From Candidatus Omnitrophota bacterium (lineage in GTDB: Bacteria > Omnitrophota > Gorgyraeia > Gygaellales > Profunditerraquicolaceae), in NCBI GenBank assembly GCA_041651115.1, contig JBAZJY010000001.1, forward strand, positions 517,165-581,164: DNA of 64,000 nt, read 5' to 3'. Positions 50,427-63,307 of this stretch are shown in pieces. The translations under genes were made by a program, and so were the position numbers. The notes beneath the pieces are model-generated. The model did no database searches, had not been told where the DNA came from, and was given only the letters and a program-made list of their open reading frames with translations. Every line of letters starts with the position of its first letter. Within the stretch, counting starts at the first letter, position 1.

Positions 50427-51983
50427 TCATAAACTATTATTCAAATACGCCGGATGCGGTTTGCCGATGATCTGATAAAAATTACGCGCGTGCATGCGGA
50501 ATAATTTATCAAAATCTCCGTTGGGGTCTTCGCCATACCACCAGAACCAGTCGCTTCCTTCCAAAACGCGCATTTGTTTCCACGCCAGCTTAATGTCAAT
50601 GCCGTCTGAACCTTCCTTCTCTATTCTTTCAAGTTCGGAGCGCGCTTCAGTCAGGCTTTCCCACGCGCGATTCTTATGCGGGTTGCCGATCCATTTGCCG
50701 AACTCGCCGTAAATCCATGAGCCCGGGGCAAGGCGCTTGATCTCATGCTCTGCCGGATGTGATTTTAAATATTCCTGCGGCGTGGTTGCGGTAACGAATT
50801 TGGCGCTGGATAAATTTTCATAAAGCAGCTCAAGAAAATCATGGCCGTCATTGGCATAATATTCCCATGCGTTCTCACCGTCCATTGCGATCGTAACAAG
50901 AATATCCTGGTTCTTAAAAGCGGCTGCGATATTTTCCAAATGCTTCATAAAATCGGCAACCGCGGACTTTGAATCCCAGCGATGATAAACAAAACCGATA
51001 AGGTCGGAAAGATTGCGGTCGCGGAAAATAATGCTTAGCTGTCCCTCTTTGCCCTTTAAGAGGTGCGGCTTATATAAAGCGCGGGTATCCCGCTTTTTAA
51101 GGCCCAATGACCTGAATAATATGCCTTCATCGGCAACAATCCATTTAATCCCGGATTCCATAATGAACGGTAATATGTGCCGGCTTACCGCTTCTTCCGA
51201 AGGCCACATGCCCGCCGGCGCCATACCGAAACGCGCCTTGTAGAATTCCACTGCTTCGTCAATTTGCGCTTTGGCATCCTGCGGCCAGCTGAATTGGACC
51301 TGCGGCAGCGTGGTTTTGATATTTGCCTCTTTGGCAGTCTTGGTATTATAAAGCAGCGGCAGTATTGGATGGTAATACGGGCTGATAGAGGCCTCAATCT
51401 GGCCCTTTGCGATGAATTCCTTATAAACGGGGATAACGCCGGAAAGGATCTCTAACTGGGTATTTAAGACAATGGTCTTATCTTCTTCATTGTAGAACCG
51501 GCCTTTGCCAACGATCTTTTTTAATGCCGGGATATTGCGGCGGAAATACGGGTCAAACCAGGCAAGGTTAAACCAAACCTGCAGGTCAAGGAAGTCTTGA
51601 GTGGTAAAATTCTTGCTGGCCTTATGTTTTAGATAAAGCTCGTAGTAACGCGGATGTACTGCAATACACTTTTCAGGGTTAATGCTGAAGAAACGGCTAA
51701 GTAGGAATTCTTTATCCTGTTGGTCAAGCTTATCCGCCGGCTTAAGGGTAAGCTCAAAAAATTTGTCCTTTACTTCGCCGCTAACGTAATCTTCTACCTG
51801 TTCTACCAGCGAAGGCACAAGATTGAATGTCTGGCGCACTGCCGGATACTTATCCAGCATTTTAACCATATCAAGGTAGTCTTTGATGCCGTGCAGCCGC
51901 ACCCAAGGCACATCAGTCTCCTTGGTAAGGAGATTCTTGTAGTACGGCTGATGCATGTGGAAGATAAAGGCGAGGTATAGCAT
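50427..51983 (-). CDS. glycoside hydrolase family 57 enzyme (alpha-glucan branching/amylase-type)
   Basis: N-terminal FIFHMHQPYY GH57 signature; 518 aa as in GH57 branching enzymes. Confidence 0.85.
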   Translation of the reverse strand: MLYLAFIFHMHQPYYKNLLTKETDVPWVRLHGIKDYLDMVKMLDKYPAVRQTFNLVPSLVEQVEDYVSGEVKDKFFELTLKPADKLDQQDKEFLLSRFFSINPEKCIAVHPRYYELYLKHKASKNFTTQDFLDLQVWFNLAWFDPYFRRNIPALKKIVGKGRFYNEEDKTIVLNTQLEILSGVIPVYKEFIAKGQIEASISPYYHPILPLLYNTKTAKEANIKTTLPQVQFSWPQDAKAQIDEAVEFYKARFGMAPAGMWPSEEAVSRHILPFIMESGIKWIVADEGILFRSLGLKKRDTRALYKPHLLKGKEGQLSIIFRDRNLSDLIGFVYHRWDSKSAVADFMKHLENIAAAFKNQDILVTIAMDGENAWEYYANDGHDFLELLYENLSSAKFVTATTPQEYLKSHPAEHEIKRLAPGSWIYGEFGKWIGNPHKNRAWESLTEARSELERIEKEGSDGIDIKLAWKQMRVLEGSDWFWWYGEDPNGDFDKLFRMHARNFYQIIGKPHPAYLNNSL

Positions 51984-52018
51984 TAGGTGATAGGTGTTAG
52001 GTAATAGGTGTTAGGTTT
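51984..52018. repeat. array of five tandem TAGGTNN heptamers abutting the GH57 start codon
   Basis: taggtga taggtgt taggtaa taggtgt taggttt; an inverted copy lies at 52404-52431 and a direct copy at 63273-63307. Confidence 0.85.
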
Positions 52019-52031
52019 AAAGTGATGGATA

Positions 52032-52403
52032 TTAAGCATATTTCCCGAGTGAATTCTTAAGACCGTTTAACATTTTACCACATTCATTATATTCTTGCAC
52101 AAAATAATTATATTTATCTTCCGCAACATATTGCTTCTTAAAGGCAATTGATATATGATGTCTGGTTTCCTGAATTTCTCCTTGCGCCCGGTTAATACCC
52201 TCTAAATAAATATTTAAATGTTTATTATTCCAACCTTCGGCAAGATTCGCAGGGGCTGAATTAGAAGATCTTCTTAATTGGGAGCCTAACTCATACTTTT
52301 CAAAATCAGGAAATTCCTGTGTTAAAGCAGAAACCTCCAAATGTAGCTTACATAATTTTTGATAAACGTCTAAATCCTCAAAGCTATTTATTTGATTTTT
52401 CAT
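52032..52403 (-). CDS. four-helix-bundle protein (TIGR02436; 23S rRNA intervening-sequence-type protein)
   Basis: DLDVYQKLCKL...SAPANLAEG signature of the family; 123 aa. Confidence 0.75.
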   Translation of the reverse strand: MKNQINSFEDLDVYQKLCKLHLEVSALTQEFPDFEKYELGSQLRRSSNSAPANLAEGWNNKHLNIYLEGINRAQGEIQETRHHISIAFKKQYVAEDKYNYFVQEYNECGKMLNGLKNSLGKYA

Positions 52404-52431
52404 ACCTGGTATCTGACACCTAGCACCTAAA
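52404..52431. repeat. inverted heptamer array (ACCTNNN x4) immediately upstream of the four-helix-bundle gene
   Basis: acctggt atctgac acctagc acctaaa is the reverse complement of TAGGTNN units. Confidence 0.7.
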
Positions 52432-52478
52432 AAAAAGCCCCCAGAGGTTTAAGCCTCCAGGGGCTTTTTTATTACATA
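52428..52478 (-). terminator. rho-independent terminator of the porin gene (strand-specific)
   Basis: Minus-strand RNA GCCCCUGGAGG-CUUAAA-CCUCUGGGGGC followed by a U-run, 11 bp including two G-U pairs; the plus-strand version has C-A mismatches. Confidence 0.6.
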
Positions 52479-52485
52479 AACGCTA

Positions 52486-53925
52486 TTAGAATGTTACCTT
52501 CATTGAACCGATGACTTCAGTTGCTGTGTTGTCATTCCTATTGGAAAGGGCATTACCCGCCCAATAGACACCGGTCAAAAGGGAGAACTGAACATCTTCG
52601 GTATAATCATAGGTAGCCGTGACATCCAATTCTTGACCTAATCCGCCCTTTTTGGTAAAAACGAGGTTCTGTCCAGGTCTTGCAACACTCGTAGCTACTA
52701 GACCGTTGGTAGACCTCTTTGCCAGCCAATAACCATAATATTCGCCTTTTAAGGTGATATCTTCCATAGGCTTCATTGAACCTTTGATACCAGCTATATG
52801 CTGATTGGTCTGGTTCCATAACACATTATGGATATTGCCGAACGTCTGGTTCTCATACATCGGGTCCCATCCGCGGCGATGGCCTGCGTTGGTATCATAG
52901 TTGTCGCTGTCACCGCTAAAATAGGCATACAAAGCAGTCAAAGAAGGTGTATATTTGACTTTTTTAAAATCATAGGTCAACGACGTTTCCAAAGCCCAAG
53001 CTTTAAGGGCTACGGTCGGCTGAGCCGCAGTATTGGTGTTATATCTACCAAACTGATATGCAACTTCCAACTGATACATAAGATTCTCGATGGGCGTAGT
53101 AGATACGCGGGCACCGATAACATCTGTACGAGTAGGCTTATTAATGTTAGTATTCGCTTTTCTGTCAACGTTTCTTTCAAACCAGTATGCCTCTACCTTG
53201 GTGTTCTTGGTGAGATCATAACCGGCATTCACGCCATAAAGATTGGTGTCATCGTAGCTGTTGGTAACTGCCTCTGCGATCTTTGCGCCGATGATGTCAA
53301 TCACCAAAGGATCATAATTAAGGGTAGCGCGAATAGCATCAAACGACTTACGGGCGCTCAGGTCTGCGTTTAACCTGTTAGCGCTGGTGGTACCCACCAC
53401 GTTACTGAACGGGCTGGCTGAACTAACCGCGTTATTAGTATCAGGATCGCCGACTATCATTTCGTTTCCAAAGTGCAGTTCCTGGCGACCAACTGTCATT
53501 GTCAGAGGAGAATACAAAAACTCTTTCAAAGTCACATAAGCCAAGTCAAGATCAATGTCTGTGTTGACATTTCTGTCTGAACTGGCTGCGACTGAACCCG
53601 TATTCTCTGTTTCGCTACCCCAATATCTTTCGTTGAGTATCCTTACGGTGGTAGAAACATTGTCTGTAAGATCAGCATCAACTCTTACGCGGGCAATGCT
53701 AGCAAGAAAAGTATCCGGATACGTTCCTGTTGTACCGGTTCCGGCGGCCTTGCTATTATTAAGCTCAAGCTGGCGAGCAACACCAAGCACGGTGATGTCT
53801 CCGCTTACTTTAACATTTTGAACTTCTGCGTATGCGGTAAATGTGAGGCCTACCACAAACGCCAAAGCCAAAACTAATATCAAGCGTTTACTCATTTGTG
53901 TAACCTCCTTTAAAATTCCAAACAA
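52486..53925 (-). CDS. outer-membrane beta-barrel porin-like protein
   Basis: Signal peptide, alternating amphipathic beta-strands, C-terminal ...KVTF aromatic terminus. Confidence 0.55.
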   Translation of the reverse strand: MFGILKEVTQMSKRLILVLALAFVVGLTFTAYAEVQNVKVSGDITVLGVARQLELNNSKAAGTGTTGTYPDTFLASIARVRVDADLTDNVSTTVRILNERYWGSETENTGSVAASSDRNVNTDIDLDLAYVTLKEFLYSPLTMTVGRQELHFGNEMIVGDPDTNNAVSSASPFSNVVGTTSANRLNADLSARKSFDAIRATLNYDPLVIDIIGAKIAEAVTNSYDDTNLYGVNAGYDLTKNTKVEAYWFERNVDRKANTNINKPTRTDVIGARVSTTPIENLMYQLEVAYQFGRYNTNTAAQPTVALKAWALETSLTYDFKKVKYTPSLTALYAYFSGDSDNYDTNAGHRRGWDPMYENQTFGNIHNVLWNQTNQHIAGIKGSMKPMEDITLKGEYYGYWLAKRSTNGLVATSVARPGQNLVFTKKGGLGQELDVTATYDYTEDVQFSLLTGVYWAGNALSNRNDNTATEVIGSMKVTF

Positions 53926-54206: not shown

Positions 54207-54233
54207 TAGGGACGTCCTTTCAGGTACCACCCT
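54207..54233. repeat. REP-like element copy (CTAGGGACGTCCTTTCAGGTACCACCCT) overlapping the AbiEii stop codon
   Basis: Shares the GGGACGTCC...GGTACCACCCT core with 56435-56460, 57148-57173 and 60295-60320. Confidence 0.75.
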
Positions 54234-54891
54234 GCAAGGCCGCTTTTATCTTCATCTCCAAAATAGCGAATTTTTTTGCAGTGTAATACCTACGCTCATC
54301 TTCCTCCAATAAAGAACCCAGCTTTACGGAGTAATCTTTTGCAGTAAAAGACGTTACCCCTCTTAACAGTCTTTCCAAAACCTCGGCAGGCTCATCCAGC
54401 GCTGCGCCTTTTTTCAAAAGAAACTCAATGTCAAAGGCGTCACGGATCTCTTTTCTGTCTAAAAGCGCCCGGATTTTTGCCGTCAGCATATCCTTTAAAG
54501 ACAGGGCATTCAAAATAACCTGCACGTTTGAATACTTGCTGTATGCGATGGACCGTTCTGATTTTACGGCCTTAAGCTCTTTTCTGATCTCCAGCTTCAG
54601 GGCCCGCGGAAAATTTTTTGACCGGATCTCAAAAAGTATTGTATAAAATTTATCCGTTGCGTCTTTTACCGTATAATAGCGGCTAAGGCAATCCTTTAGA
54701 TTGCGGAATAATTTTTGGGCATCGGTTTTTTTATTGAGCCAAAAATCCAAATCTACGGAAAACCGGTTTAAACCGTAACAGAGCCTAAGCATTGTGCCTC
54801 CGCCAAAAACAAGCCCGCTCAATAATTTTGCGCTGTTTAGCCGATCCAAAACCTCTAATTCAAATTGTTCCTGTTTTATGAGATCCCGCAT
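54220..54891 (-). CDS. AbiEii/DUF1814-family nucleotidyltransferase toxin
   Basis: LVFGGGTMLRLCYGLNRFSVDLDF NTase motif characteristic of AbiEii. Confidence 0.7.
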   Translation of the reverse strand: MRDLIKQEQFELEVLDRLNSAKLLSGLVFGGGTMLRLCYGLNRFSVDLDFWLNKKTDAQKLFRNLKDCLSRYYTVKDATDKFYTILFEIRSKNFPRALKLEIRKELKAVKSERSIAYSKYSNVQVILNALSLKDMLTAKIRALLDRKEIRDAFDIEFLLKKGAALDEPAEVLERLLRGVTSFTAKDYSVKLGSLLEEDERRYYTAKKFAILEMKIKAALQGGT

Positions 54892-55466
54892 ATTTTCCCC
54901 GCTATCTGCCTTGTTTTAAGTGGGTATGCTTTTATTATTTTTTTTAACCTCTGCATATCCAACCTTTCAATATTCAAAGATGCGAAGTCCAATTTATATT
55001 TGCCGAAAGAAAAAAGATAAACGGCATCCATAAAAGCTTTTTCTTTTGTGGCGATAAAAATATTGTCTTTTCTGATAAAATCAAAATAGACTGTTTTTTT
55101 AACTTTGTGATAGTTGAATATTACTCCCTTTATTTCAAAACGCTGGGAGCGTTTTAGGGAAATACTTTCAAAAAAATTCCGCGGAGACTGGGTTGTAACT
55201 TCATAAAACGATAAAGCAGTCATTAAAGATATGTATGAAGGCACCTGCAGGTAATTGGAAAGCGCGAAAAAATCTTCCCGCCTAAAGTTGCCCCAATTCT
55301 GATCCAAGACGTAAAAATTATTTTTAAGCCTTATAAAAACGCCGGATTTTACGTAGCGGCTGGCAAGGACCCGGGCTGATTCAAGGCTAATGCCGGCAAT
55401 ATTTGCCAGATTGGCTATTGTAAAGTAGGGCTTTTCCTGTAACCGGCGAAGCTGCGCGTATTTCAT
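54876..55466 (-). CDS. AbiEi-family antitoxin/transcriptional regulator
   Basis: N-terminal AbiEi_4-like wHTH (FTIANLANIAGISLESARVLASRYVKSGVF); overlaps the abiEii start. Confidence 0.65.
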   Translation of the reverse strand: MKYAQLRRLQEKPYFTIANLANIAGISLESARVLASRYVKSGVFIRLKNNFYVLDQNWGNFRREDFFALSNYLQVPSYISLMTALSFYEVTTQSPRNFFESISLKRSQRFEIKGVIFNYHKVKKTVYFDFIRKDNIFIATKEKAFMDAVYLFSFGKYKLDFASLNIERLDMQRLKKIIKAYPLKTRQIAGKICGIS

Positions 55467-56434: not shown

Positions 56435-56460
56435 GGGGACGTCCTTTAAAGTACCACCCT
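56435..56460. repeat. REP-like 26-mer (GGGGACGTCCTTTAAAGTACCACCCT) downstream flank of the RAYT
   Basis: Inverted relative to 57148-57173; overlaps the RAYT stop codon and abuts the lipB start. Confidence 0.8.
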
Positions 56461-57049
56461 ATCTGATCTTAAACACTTTATCTACAATGAGGTCGTAAGG
56501 CCTGTCCTCGGATACATATTTGATATAGGCCTCTTGCCTCTTCTCTTGTATATGGGCCAATCCCGAATAGAGCAAATTAGGCATAATTATTATATCATCG
56601 GTAGAGCCGTAAGCATAGTAAGAAAAACTGCTCCATTTATATCTTGATAAATTATCAACTATTCCTGCACGCAGAGGATTCCGTTCAATATACCTTGCGC
56701 ATTCTAAAAGATAAGCATCATTATTTATGGAGCGGCTCTTATACCGGTTCTGAAAGATAAACCCGACAGAACCATAACGCTTGCGGAATGTAACCGCATA
56801 TACCTGCAGAATTGATTGCATAAATTTTGGTAGATCCGATGCTTTAATAGCTTTAAGCAGCAGGTGTATGTGGTTTGGCATAATGCAGTAATTGGTTATC
56901 TTGACTTCGTAGGAGTGCTGGTATTGCTTAAGTATTGCCAAAAAGTATTCATAGTCATGCTTGCACCTAAACAGGCGCCTACGGTCAATACCCCTTGTAA
57001 CTATATGATAATACCCTCCGTCTATCAAGGCTCTACTTACTCTTGGCAT
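56459..57049 (-). mobile_element. IS200-like Y1 HUH transposase, REP-associated (RAYT) type
   Basis: HUH motif PNHIHLLL and catalytic-Tyr helix ARYIERNPLRAG (Y-x3-NP); 196 aa; flanked by inverted REP-like 26-mers. Confidence 0.75.
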
Positions 57050-57175: not shown

Positions 57176-58468
57176 CTATTTGAGCGCTTCGTGGATGCCT
57201 TCGGACAGGCTGGGGTGGGCAAAGATCGTATCGCGGATCTGCGATACGGATAATTTATTGGAAACTGCCAGGCCGGCAATCGCAATGAGCTCTGCCGCGG
57301 AAGGCCCGAGTATTGCGCAGCCAAGCACTACTCCGGATTTTGCCTCTGAAATAAATTTAATGAAACCGTCTGCTTCATCCATAATCCTTGCCATGCCGGA
57401 AGCCATAAAATCAAATTTATGCAGCTTCACTTCAATACCCTTGGCAATTGCTTCTTCTTCACTCATTCCCACGCTTGCTGCCTGGGGATCGGTAAAAATG
57501 CAGCTGGGCACGACCTGGTTATCGCACTTTTTTGGCTTGGCAGAATCTGCGATGTTCTCTGCCGCAATAACTCCTTGGTAAGCGGCATAATGCGCAAGCA
57601 TTAACTTTCCTGTGCAGTCTCCGGCGGCGTAAATATTAGGAATATTTGTCCTAAGATATTCATCAACGACGATCTTTCCTTTTTCAGTTACTACACCGAT
57701 AGATTCTAAGCCTAACCCTTGCGTATCCACTGCCCTGCCCACGGCAAGCAGCACCAAATCATAATTATTAAAATCCGCGGGCTGCGCCTCGGCATTAGTG
57801 CTTACCTTGATGCCTTTCTTTTTAAAAGATTGCTCAAGCTTGCGGCTAATGTCTTTATCCATTCCCGGCAAAAGCTGGGGCATTTTTTCAATCACTGTAA
57901 CCGTTATGCCAAGGCCGGCAAATAAGCCGGCGAATTCACAGCCAATCACCCCGCCGCCAATAATAAGAAGTGTCTTAGGAAGTTCCCTTAACTGCAGGAT
58001 CTCGTCGCTGGAAATAACTTTCTTACCATCAAGCTTGATCTGGCGTAATTCTGCCGGCGTTGAGCCACAGGCAATAAGAATAAATTTCGCGGACAGCTCT
58101 TTGCCGCCTGCTTTTACGGAATTCGCGGAAATGAGTTTTGCTTCGGCGTTGATGAAATCCACGCCCTTAAGCATAAATGCCATGCCTGCTGAAAGCTGCT
58201 GAATAATTTTATCTTTTCTGGATTGGATTTCGGGAAAATTTATTGCGGGGTTTGTAACTTCTATACCGAAGGTTTTTGATTTTTTTGCCAGGGAGTAAAC
58301 TTTGGCTGACTGGATAAGCGCCTTGGTGGGGATACAGCCGCGGTTAAGGCAGGTGCCGCCGATTTGGCTGTTCTCAATTACGGCAACTTTCAGGCCGGAG
58401 TCTTTGGCTTTTAAAGCCGCGTTAAACCCTGCCCATCCACTGCCGATGATGATCAAATCGTAATTCAT
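57176..58468 (-). CDS. lpdA: dihydrolipoyl dehydrogenase
   Basis: FAD motif GSGWAG, redox-active disulfide GGTCLNRGCIPTK, NAD motif GGGVIGCE, C-terminal HAHP-like region. Confidence 0.8.
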   Translation of the reverse strand: MNYDLIIIGSGWAGFNAALKAKDSGLKVAVIENSQIGGTCLNRGCIPTKALIQSAKVYSLAKKSKTFGIEVTNPAINFPEIQSRKDKIIQQLSAGMAFMLKGVDFINAEAKLISANSVKAGGKELSAKFILIACGSTPAELRQIKLDGKKVISSDEILQLRELPKTLLIIGGGVIGCEFAGLFAGLGITVTVIEKMPQLLPGMDKDISRKLEQSFKKKGIKVSTNAEAQPADFNNYDLVLLAVGRAVDTQGLGLESIGVVTEKGKIVVDEYLRTNIPNIYAAGDCTGKLMLAHYAAYQGVIAAENIADSAKPKKCDNQVVPSCIFTDPQAASVGMSEEEAIAKGIEVKLHKFDFMASGMARIMDEADGFIKFISEAKSGVVLGCAILGPSAAELIAIAGLAVSNKLSVSQIRDTIFAHPSLSEGIHEALK

Positions 58469-60954: not shown

Positions 60955-62001
60955 TTATAACTGTTTGAACTCGTCGGTATTTTTAACTTTTGACATTGCC
61001 ACGTCTAAAGTTATCTGCTTCTGGTTATAAAGATCCTTTAATGACTTATCCATTGTCTTCATTCCGTATTGGCTGCCGGTTTGCATGATCGTGGGGATCT
61101 GCTCAATCTCCTGCTCGCGGATAAGGTTGCGGATGGCAGGCGTGCCGATCATAATTTCCGTAGCCAAGACCCGGCCTTGGCCTGACGCGTGCGGCAGGAG
61201 CAGCTGCGATACAACCCCCTGAAGGCAGTCTGCAAGCTGAAGCTTAACCTGCTGCTGCTGGTGCGAAGGGAATACGTCAATGATCCTTTCAATAGTCTGC
61301 GGCGCGTCCGGAGTGTGCAGCGTGGCAAGCACCAAGTGGCCGGTTTCCGCCGCGGTAAGCGTAGTGGAAATAGTCTCTAAGTCACGCATTTCACCGACTA
61401 CAATAACGTTAGGGTCCTGGCGCAGCGCGTGCCTCAACGCTTCGGCAAATGAGCGCGTATCGGCGTAAACTTCTCTTTGCTTGATAATACTCTTTTTATT
61501 CTTATGCACGAATTCAATCGGGTCTTCAATGGAAACCATCAAACATTCCCGTTCGTTGTTTATCTGGTCTATCATTGCCGCCAAAGTCGTGGTCTTACCC
61601 ATACCTGTAGGGCCGGTAACCAATACTAATCCGTTGCCGCGGCGGGCAAGCTCCGTGATTATCGGCGGCAAGTTAAGGTCTTTTGCCGTAGGCACGTTAA
61701 GCGGCACGCGCCTGAATGCCGCTTCCACAGCGCCTTTCTGCATATGGGTATTCACCCTGAATCTGTCCATACCGGGAAGCGCAAGAGAAAAATCCAGTTC
61801 CAGGTCGCGCTCAAATATCTCTTTCTGCGGATTAGTCAGGACGCTGTAAATAATGCGTTTTAGATCCAATTTTGTCATTGGGGGAAAAGCAGTGCGCATC
61901 AGCTTTCCGTCAATGCGCAAAATAGGAGGTTCGTTTTCCGTAAGGTGCAGATCCGAGGCTTTTTTGTCAATGCACATCGTCAATAACTCGCTTAGTTCCA
62001 T
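60955..62001 (-). CDS. pilT: type IV pilus retraction ATPase PilT
   Basis: ASDLHL, Walker A GPTGMGKTTT, Asp box, His box; 348 aa. Confidence 0.85.
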   Translation of the reverse strand: MELSELLTMCIDKKASDLHLTENEPPILRIDGKLMRTAFPPMTKLDLKRIIYSVLTNPQKEIFERDLELDFSLALPGMDRFRVNTHMQKGAVEAAFRRVPLNVPTAKDLNLPPIITELARRGNGLVLVTGPTGMGKTTTLAAMIDQINNERECLMVSIEDPIEFVHKNKKSIIKQREVYADTRSFAEALRHALRQDPNVIVVGEMRDLETISTTLTAAETGHLVLATLHTPDAPQTIERIIDVFPSHQQQQVKLQLADCLQGVVSQLLLPHASGQGRVLATEIMIGTPAIRNLIREQEIEQIPTIMQTGSQYGMKTMDKSLKDLYNQKQITLDVAMSKVKNTDEFKQL

Positions 62002-63272: not shown

Positions 63273-63307
63273 TAGGTGTTAGGTCTTAGGTGCTGGGTGT
63301 TAGGTGA
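63273..63307. repeat. array of five tandem TAGGTNN heptamers abutting the leuC start codon
   Basis: taggtgt taggtct taggtgc tgggtgt taggtga, same orientation as 51984-52018. Confidence 0.85.

Follow-up and report, generated by a model that had tools for sequence, protein, structure and literature searches.

A four-helix-bundle gene between inverted heptamer arrays in an Omnitrophota genome: a candidate intervening-sequence-type element outside ribosomal RNA

The window analyzed here is a stretch of 64,000 nucleotides (contig JBAZJY010000001.1, positions 517,165 to 581,164) from a Candidatus Omnitrophota metagenome-assembled genome (MAG). It contains a unit of 448 bp (51984–52431) in which a small gene for a four-helix-bundle (4HB) protein is enclosed by two inverted arrays of the heptamer TAGGTNN. 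All genes of the locus are on the minus strand. Immediately upstream in coding order lies the gene for an Alginate_exp-type porin (52486–53925, −), which ends in a G+C-rich hairpin followed by a run of eight Ts (52432–52470, −), flagged as a terminator-like site in the plus-strand reading. This hairpin is also kept in relatives, and its T8 run merges straight into the 5′ arm of the unit (52404–52431, −), which reads TAGGTGC TAGGTGT CAGATAC CAGGT and adjoins the ATG of the 4HB gene. The gene itself (52032–52403, −) encodes 123 amino acids and belongs to the PF05635/TIGR02436 "23S rRNA intervening sequence protein" family. A 13-nt spacer (52019–52031, −) separates its TAA from the 3′ arm (51984–52018, −), which reads AAACCTA ACACCTA TTACCTA ACACCTA TCACCTA on the coding strand and stands directly before the ATG of a GH57 glycoside hydrolase gene (50427–51983, −; Pfam PF03065). 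On the plus strand, the 3′ arm is made up of five clean units (TAGGTGA TAGGTGT TAGGTAA TAGGTGT TAGGTTT) that adjoin the GH57 start codon, seen as cat at 51981–51983.

The original prediction, made from the letters alone, described a 4HB gene between inverted TAGGTNN arrays, in a unit of roughly 450 bp wedged between the GH57 start and the porin terminator. The sequence, the comparison with shuffled sequences and Tandem Repeats Finder all bear this out, and the unit adjoins both features. The 5′ arm is present and inverted as described, but it is weaker than was implied, with only two clean and two decayed heptamers. When up to one mismatch was allowed, TAGGTNNTAGGT matched the window 10 times, compared to 2.2 ± 1.5 times in shuffled sequences, and none of 100 shuffles reached 10. 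Tandem Repeats Finder called both five-unit arrays, the 3′ arm and a solo array at 63273–63307, at period 7, and a generic lag-7 detector found only these two in the 64 kb. At the gathering threshold, Rfam gave no rRNA and no family in the whole window, and nothing for the arms; at E-values up to 10, the region 51850–52550 produced weak terminator- or leader-like matches only. A known RNA family for the arms was rejected on these grounds, and so was a promoter inside them, because their coding strand contains no sigma-70-like site. The unit leaves no room for a promoter or terminator of its own.

The 4HB protein scored 99.5 bits against PF05635 (cutoff 33.8; E = 1.6e-28) and 89.8 bits against TIGR02436 (cutoff 24), and is thus a member of the family. 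Its AlphaFold 2 model (pLDDT 93.1) consists of helices at residues 12–28, 33–59, 63–89 and 95–120. The closest structure found with Foldseek was XCC0516 (2GSC), with a TM-score of 0.86–0.93 and a root-mean-square deviation of 1.0–1.3 Å, followed by 2RLD (BT_0352) and 4DWL. The entries of the solved relatives 2GSC and 2RLD each comprise five chains. The single window protein matched 5,603 clusters at 50% identity; no relative was found in viral contigs.

The N-terminus of the GH57 protein, MLYLAFIFHMHQPYY, is conserved in all orthologs, from which we conclude that the ATG at 51983 is the true start. There is no Shine–Dalgarno (SD) sequence before this ATG, and the 3′ arm stands immediately ahead of it. 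Public gene calls start GH57 24 codons late, giving 494 instead of 518 amino acids (51912–51983 are skipped). The cassette-bearing relatives L007, L009 and L003 are likewise called short (494, 494 and 501 amino acids), while GH57 is called longer in L011 and L012 (506 and 515). The late calls apparently reflect the lack of a ribosome-binding site in the heptamer array; the practical effect is that heptamer arrays hide true start codons from gene callers.

Homologs that are 71–85% identical to the window 4HB protein share its synteny: porin, 4HB, GH57, hypothetical gene and ParA-CBM48. All of them are bracketed, with 4–8 TAGGTNN units leading up to the ATG and 4–8 NNACCTA units between the stop codon and the GH57 ATG; in most, the 3′ arm begins right at the 4HB stop codon, where the window has its 13-nt spacer. 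The number of units and the two free positions vary even between contigs with an identical 4HB protein. Within this cluster, dN/dS for the 4HB gene was 0.04–0.13 with dS > 1, so that the gene is, to judge from these rates, under purifying selection and old at the porin–GH57 site. The arrays are evidently kept, or continually renewed, despite the saturation of neutral positions.

Other relatives show the same locus in different states. In L152 (1416–1840), the 4HB gene is a pseudogene (ATG changed to ATA, with internal stops) between two intact arms. L222 and L223 have no 4HB gene, only a 3′-type arm abutting the GH57 ATG, and L224–L227 have neither gene nor array, so that the comparison of GH57 loci suggested in the original prediction did yield orthologous cassette-free loci. 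The GH57 identities are 65–73% throughout, and cassette, pseudogene, solo-arm and empty states are interleaved, which indicates repeated loss or gain rather than a single event. As read from such loci, the 4HB open reading frame (ORF) can be lost through decay or deletion, and what then remains is the arms, an empty hairpin or a solo arm.

A metagenome scan with the 4HB alignment returned 80 loci, 64 of which had enough flanking sequence for an array test. A period-7 array was found at the start in 47 of these 64 cassettes and after the stop in 51; elsewhere in the contigs, the same detector found 1.4 arrays per 10 kb. The lag-7 identity was 0.78 on the start side and 0.75 on the stop side, compared to ≈0.38 at other lags. 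Seventy-one loci fell into 30 different flank contexts. The neighborhood of accB, cas operons and a CRISPR array are among the contexts of 4HB genes. In 58 of 65 cases the upstream ORF, and in 55 of 59 the downstream ORF, had the orientation of the 4HB gene, and the median distances to these ORFs, 55 and 46 nt, are barely longer than the arrays. Bracketed 4HB genes occur in Omnitrophota, a Bacteroidota MAG, cyanobacterial plasmids, Azospirillum and Xanthomonas. Ten distant members (28–39% identity) were sampled, and seven of them, namely those of cultured cyanobacteria on finished plasmids and of Azospirillum, had clearly inverted brackets made of unrelated heptamers. The remaining three were a direct bracket (L236) and two unclear cases (L234 and L235). 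Presence of the gene at the porin–GH57 locus of distant relatives without flanking arrays, which the original prediction had named as a point against itself, was not the pattern encountered: the relatives carry arrays. A second 4HB gene in L225 and L226 is also bracketed. The loci retrieved happened to include six further distinct 4HB genes, of which five show the same design and one (L059) shows it in part only. In Xanthomonas campestris, a GGGAATC ×4 array overlaps the start of XCC0516 (2GSC), 6 nt from bccP (PMC4692102, supplementary table); the authors did not comment on XCC0516.

Several of these loci have features of their own. In L221 (1400–3480) and L205 (whole locus), 4HB cassettes sit in a CRISPR array, in spacer positions between 37-nt repeats (GTGAGGAACTTAGACCTGATGAATAAGGGATTGCGAC), downstream of a Cas2-like ORF. 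L221 has three different adjacent cassettes, each with its own heptamer type and arms that match, and L205 contains the same types in full, partly deleted (204–277 nt) and empty-hairpin (129 nt) form. Apparent target duplications of 28 bp in L221 were rejected as such, since they are CRISPR repeats. A co-oriented 4HB gene lies between cas10 and cmr3 in Picosynechococcus PCC 7003 (L228, 389–745), and between cas6 and cas4 in Pseudanabaena galeata and Anabaena sp. 90 (L236, 413–772; L237, 398–766). Together, the cas-operon and CRISPR-array cassettes hint that such units may favor CRISPR loci or be linked to them. In L225 (420–760) and L226 (517–760), a tRNA gene comes after a TCTATAG-type cassette of a distant 4HB gene, and beyond it lie hairpins of that type but lacking an ORF, two in L225 and one in L226. 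The 3′ arm in L013 (3001–3833) and L172 is found 385 nt past the 4HB stop, where it immediately precedes an Aminotran_4 ATG, and the loop holds tiny called ORFs of 64 and 31 amino acids. Finally, the flanks of L154, L197, L206, L221 and L239 (4819–4944) contain tandem arrays and hairpins of AAACAGT, GTGAAAC, TTTCGGA, GATGAAC and CTAAAYA; with other heptamers on the same contigs, one genome can evidently hold several heptamer families.

The two arms of a cassette change together. The core pairs found in the 5′ and 3′ arms were TAGGT/ACCTA, TAGAT/ATCTA, AAGGT/ACCTT, TGGGT/ACCCA and AAGAT/ATCTT, and the core follows the 4HB protein tree across contexts, with clades that use TAGAT, AAGGT, TGGGT or AAGAT. 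The claim that gene and arrays form one recurring unit is upheld in several phyla. Across 60 cassettes, the mean predicted duplex energy was −36.2 kcal/mol for cognate arms, −29.3 kcal/mol for non-cognate arms and −22.3 kcal/mol for shuffled ones, and the cognate arm was the best of 60 in 10 cases. The identity at the free positions N6N7 was 0.56 for cognate and 0.47 for non-cognate arms (p = 4e-4). In the predicted fold of the 455-nt sense RNA, the minimum free energy and centroid structures are both closed by pairing of the 5′ arm with the 3′ arm (7+7+2+2+4 bp). The closing stem pairs 52430–52404 with 52009–51983, placing its base at the GH57 start codon, of which it includes the A of the AUG. 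Stop codons in all three frames were present in 72% of 5′ arms, compared to 23% of shuffled arms. We considered SD or anti-SD mimicry as a general role of the arms, UAGGUGA being SD-like and CACCUAA resembling the 3′ tail of 16S rRNA. This was rejected because other cassettes use TAGAT, AAGGT, TGGGT, AAGAT, GAGTGAA, ATGAACN, TCTATAG and AAAAGCT cores.

Arrays are far commoner than cassettes. When one genome per species was scanned for four exact TAGGTNN units, at least 120 loci matched, with ≈1 expected by chance. Among the matches listed, to which all figures of this paragraph refer, the arrays were found in Cyanobacteria, Bacteroidota, Patescibacteria, Fibrobacter, Omnitrophota, Elusimicrobia and some Gammaproteobacteria. 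The association of such arrays with 4HB genes, which the original prediction had proposed to look for, did not emerge: none of the at least 120 loci had a 4HB gene next to it (0 of 129 arrays, searched with a narrow hidden Markov model), and arrays free of linked 4HB genes had been named beforehand as evidence against the proposal. The neighbors are ordinary genes, several of them for ribosomal proteins, and the top families in a Pfam scan of 90 small ORFs adjoining arrays were all housekeeping ones. Convergent pairs of the form (TAGGTNN)n–loop–(NNACCTA)n, with loops of 2–130 nt, were found 41 times, compared to one pair in the opposite order; by their sequence, such pairs with short loops are empty hairpins. 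Solo arrays are polar as well. A start follows within 15 nt in 16 of 123 cases for the ACCTA type and in 5 of 123 for the TAGGT type; a stop precedes within 15 nt in 22 of 123 for the TAGGT type and in 5 of 123 for the ACCTA type. Loops of 400–500 nt between array pairs contained no 4HB gene in this genome scan, and one contained an FmdE-like ORF: in L115 (846–1316), a TAGGTNN/NNACCTA pair encloses an ORF of ≈135 amino acids with an FmdE-like FHGHLGP motif, indicating that the hairpins can carry other cargo. Empty hairpins with the same arm sequence adjoin the cassettes in L219 and L166.

The solo array of the window (63273–63307, −), which had been pointed out in the original prediction, was confirmed as five units (TAGGTGT TAGGTCT TAGGTGC TGGGTGT TAGGTGA on the plus strand). 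It is of the 3′-arm type, and reads TCACCTA ACACCCA GCACCTA AGACCTA ACACCTA on the coding strand, followed by AT and the ATG of a leuC-like gene that has no SD sequence. Together with these two nucleotides it fills the entire gap of 37 nt from the stop of the aminotransferase gene (63308) to the start of the leuC-like gene (63270). The array is absent from this junction in the relatives L238, L239 and L240, where the genes are separated by 9 nt, overlap, or are separated by 64 nt with an unrelated hairpin.

We interpret the 448-bp unit as an intervening-sequence (IVS)-type element located outside ribosomal RNA, a reading to which we assign a probability of about 0.5. It draws on the ORF family and the size, which match those of the Coxiella IVS, on the arms, which close a predicted stem, and on the close, co-oriented neighbors, which suggest that the unit hitch-hikes on transcription of the host genes. 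The conserved family-wide architecture, the co-variation of the arms, the predicted stem and the purifying selection on the 4HB gene are established. The proposed sequence of events is as follows. The unit would be transcribed by read-through from the host operon, and the arms would pair in the RNA to form a stem of ≈27 nt. A double-strand-specific RNase, by analogy with the 23S IVS presumably RNase III, would cut this stem and free the 4HB message from its neighbors, leaving GH57 with a short, G-poor leader, consisting of the 3′ arm and devoid of an SD sequence. The 3′ arm would in this way double as the leader of the downstream gene, while the stop-rich 5′ arm may halt incoming ribosomes in all three frames.

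Several observations weigh against the IVS-type reading. A stem alone explains neither the heptamer build nor the preference for the TAGGT-first order (41:1 among the matches listed). The arms are only ≈78% complementary over ≈38 nt, and the z-score of the whole-RNA fold is just −1.69. Mismatches of the G-U-compatible sense-strand type were about as frequent as those of the antisense type (90 vs. 104, p = 0.35), next to 313 transversions; a sense-strand RNA signature was accordingly rejected, and pairing in RNA cannot be separated from pairing in DNA on this basis. The arrays of L236 are direct rather than inverted, those of L234 and L235 are unclear, and a nearby 3′ arm is missing in L013, L151 and L168. 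Moreover, since a terminator-like hairpin precedes the unit, read-through is an assumption. The heptamer build, the imperfect complementarity, the brackets that are direct or lack a nearby 3′ arm and the absence of a G-U bias keep two other readings alive, in which the arrays are binding sites or the unit is a mobile element at the DNA level.

According to the former, which we regard as a tentative alternative, the 4HB protein, pentameric in its solved relatives, binds the heptamer arrays sequence-specifically, at about one unit per subunit, as operator or recognition sites on RNA or DNA. The array at its own start codon could then serve autoregulation, the downstream gene could be controlled as well, and ORF-less arrays could be targets in trans, all of which would be compatible with a hairpin. 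A conserved core of five nucleotides with two free positions resembles a repeated site rather than a designed helix, the modal length of the 5′ array is five units, 2GSC and 2RLD crystallize with five chains, and the ribonucleoprotein of diversity-generating retroelements (DGRs) contains RNA-bound Avd pentamers. However, recognition by stand-alone members of the family is putative, and the copy number is broad, from 1 to 12. That the core follows the protein clades, and that three adjacent cassettes with divergent proteins each have a different heptamer, fits specific recognition, but is also expected from simple co-inheritance. The direct repeats of L236 suit binding better than a stem. Among the matches listed, TAGGTNN arrays are spread over phyla in an unusual way that 4HB genes share, although none of the 129 arrays listed had a 4HB gene nearby.

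The interpretation favored in the original prediction, a mobile cassette, appears doubtful to us. Here, the arrays would be terminal inverted repeats or hairpin or cruciform substrates, acted upon by a recombinase in trans or by the 4HB protein itself, and ORF-less forms would be derivatives or footprints resembling MITEs (miniature transposable elements with inverted repeats). The part of this claim that stands is the recurrence of the same gene-plus-arms unit in 30 contexts and several phyla, together with the cassette-free orthologous loci: presence and absence differ between relatives at the same site. Several copies of the same cassette types within one CRISPR array, the empty hairpins with the same arms beside cassettes (L219, L166), the unbiased strand distribution of mismatches, which is the expectation for a structure at the DNA level, and the lineage-specific acquisition of the solo array at 63273, in a gap of ≤9 nt, all point in the same direction. 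In contrast, there is no transposase or integrase in or beside the unit, whose sole ORF is the 4HB gene and whose neighbors are the porin and GH57 genes, and target-site duplications, which the original prediction had proposed to look for, were not seen in the window, in the relatives or in comparison with the empty loci L224–L227. The cassette has persisted between the porin and GH57 genes while divergence reached saturation, and its strong co-orientation with the host genes is unexpected for a DNA transposon unless selected. The one mobile-element gene nearby, a RAYT gene (56459–57049, −), has no flanking TAGGTNN arrays. Alternatively, the arrays may be translational or insulating signals, in which the stop-rich TAGGTNN ends upstream frames and the G-poor ACCUAAN before an AUG acts as an SD-independent leader or re-initiation platform. 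The three-frame stops of the 5′ arms, the polarity of solo arrays relative to starts and stops and the position of the 3′ arm and the solo array directly at SD-less ATGs are in agreement with such a role, as is the TAGGT-first order (41:1 among the matches listed), which puts outward-facing stops on both strands. A role of this sort has been suggested for the TAACTGA repeats of Beggiatoaceae, whose most frequent end point is 1 nt before a start codon that lacks an SD sequence (PMC4679880). Nevertheless, we consider it unlikely as the explanation of the unit, as some heptamer types are free of stops (L229, L231), the complementarity and co-variation of the arms are left unexplained, and an effect on expression is putative. 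Lastly, heptamer microsatellites born by slippage might just happen to flank a 4HB gene. Heptamer repeats are generally over-represented in bacteria (PMC4692102), the flanks hold arrays of several other cores (1.4 per 10 kb), and copy number differs between contigs that encode an identical 4HB protein. Such a coincidence is highly improbable, however, given arrays at each end in 73–80% of cassettes against ≈1% expected from the background, arms that are complementary and cassette-specific, the recurrence of the pattern with other heptamers in distant subfamilies and phyla, and arrays that outlast saturated neutral divergence.

The closest known counterpart is the 23S rRNA IVS of Leptospira and Coxiella. 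The Coxiella IVS is 428–444 nt long, with an S23p ORF in the loop of a 28-bp stem of terminal inverted repeats that is cut by RNase III (PMC4990558); excision of 23S IVSs by RNase III is known for Coxiella, Leptospira and Salmonella (PMC4990558). The unit described here, at 448 bp, resembles these elements in its PF05635/TIGR02436 ORF, in its complementary termini, which are predicted to form a stem of about the same 28 bp around the ORF, in its presumed position inside a host transcription unit, and in the decay of the ORF while the stem persists, with ORF-less versions in existence. It differs in its location, which is between porin and GH57 genes here, and within cas operons or a CRISPR array at other loci, rather than in helix 9, 25 or 45 of 23S rRNA; in its arms, which are tandem heptamer arrays of variable copy number and ≈78% complementarity; and in the strong purifying selection on its ORF, while processing by RNase III is suggested by analogy. 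Because of its location, the unit does not belong to the strict rRNA IVS class; nor is it a transposon, a REPIN or a DGR component.

The arms themselves resemble the intergenic heptamer repeats of other bacteria: TAACTGA in Beggiatoaceae, Cyanobacteria and Bacteroidetes (PMC4679880), GGGAATC in Xanthomonas and GGGGAYT in Nostoc (PMC4692102), and the cyanobacterial short tandemly repeated repetitive (STRR) sequences, three tandem heptanucleotides have also been described for Calothrix PCC 7601 (cited in PMC4692102). All of these have a period of seven, comprise 2–14 units, are almost always intergenic, often end 0–1 nt before an SD-less start, vary in copy number between strains and are patchily distributed across phyla, and 70–75 convergent inverted pairs are on record for GGGAATC in Xanthomonas (PMC4692102). 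The window arrays share these properties, being tandem, intergenic, variable in copy number and adjacent to SD-less starts. On the other hand, the core here is TAGGTNN, and the two papers (PMC4679880, PMC4692102) draw no connection with 4HB genes.

There are also similarities to REP/REPIN sequences and their RAYT genes, namely multi-copy hairpin-forming extragenic repeats, one "master" gene between inverted repeats and a large excess of ORF-less copies. However, the 4HB protein is a helical bundle rather than a Y1 transposase, and the repeats are tandem heptamers rather than a single palindrome with a GTAG head. A link between the unit and RAYT/REP was rejected, as the window RAYT gene lacks TAGGTNN arrays in its flanks. 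Avd, the accessory protein of DGRs, is an RNA-contacting pentameric helical bundle of the same fold (Foldseek TM-score of 0.77/0.87 to 4DWL, plus the 8UB7 ribonucleoprotein). Nevertheless, the window protein scored 39.2 bits against the Avd model NF033474, below its cutoff of 80, no reverse transcriptase was present among the called neighbors of the 4HB gene, and neither a template repeat nor a variable repeat was seen nearby. MITEs are likewise small, have inverted termini, differ in presence and absence between relatives and have ORF-less derivatives; unlike them, the unit has no target-site duplication or cognate transposase, and its termini are degenerate tandem arrays.

We found no open-access paper that links 4HB/S23 genes to heptamer repeats. 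While an earlier description is possible, the link appears to be undescribed so far; heptamer repeats and ORF-bearing IVSs are each known already. Two features that have gone without explanation for ≈30 years, the S23/IVS 4HB genes and the intergenic heptamer repeats, are physically coupled, and the IVS concept reaches beyond rRNA, to ordinary and cas operons and to CRISPR arrays. With this coupling, binding, processing by RNase III and gain or loss between strains can be studied experimentally in a concrete system. One may speculate further that bacterial heptamer repeats (STRR, TAACTGA, GGGAATC and TAGGTNN) have their missing trans-acting partners in the 4HB proteins, with each pentamer reading its own core. 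The gene-bearing hairpin would then be the autonomous form and the ORF-less hairpins and solo arrays the non-autonomous ones, as in RAYT/REPIN, spreading into units that are highly transcribed, such as rRNA, CRISPR arrays, and cas and housekeeping operons.

Three other regions of the window deserve mention. The RAYT gene at 56459–57049 lies 4 kb from the cassette and scored 81.7 bits against NF047646 (cutoff 80); nearby are two short palindromes only (56436–56459 and 57227–57248). Between the porin gene and the lipoyl/biotinyl genes, at 54220–55466 (−), a gene for an AbiEii-type nucleotidyltransferase toxin (PF08843) overlaps an upstream partner ORF of 196 amino acids, and the two probably constitute an AbiE-like toxin–antitoxin pair. 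At 60955–62001 (−), a gene for a T2SSE/PilT-like ATPase (PF00437) is located between the Aconitase and Aconitase_C subunit genes of an isopropylmalate/homoaconitate dehydratase, an arrangement that is kept in L238–L240.

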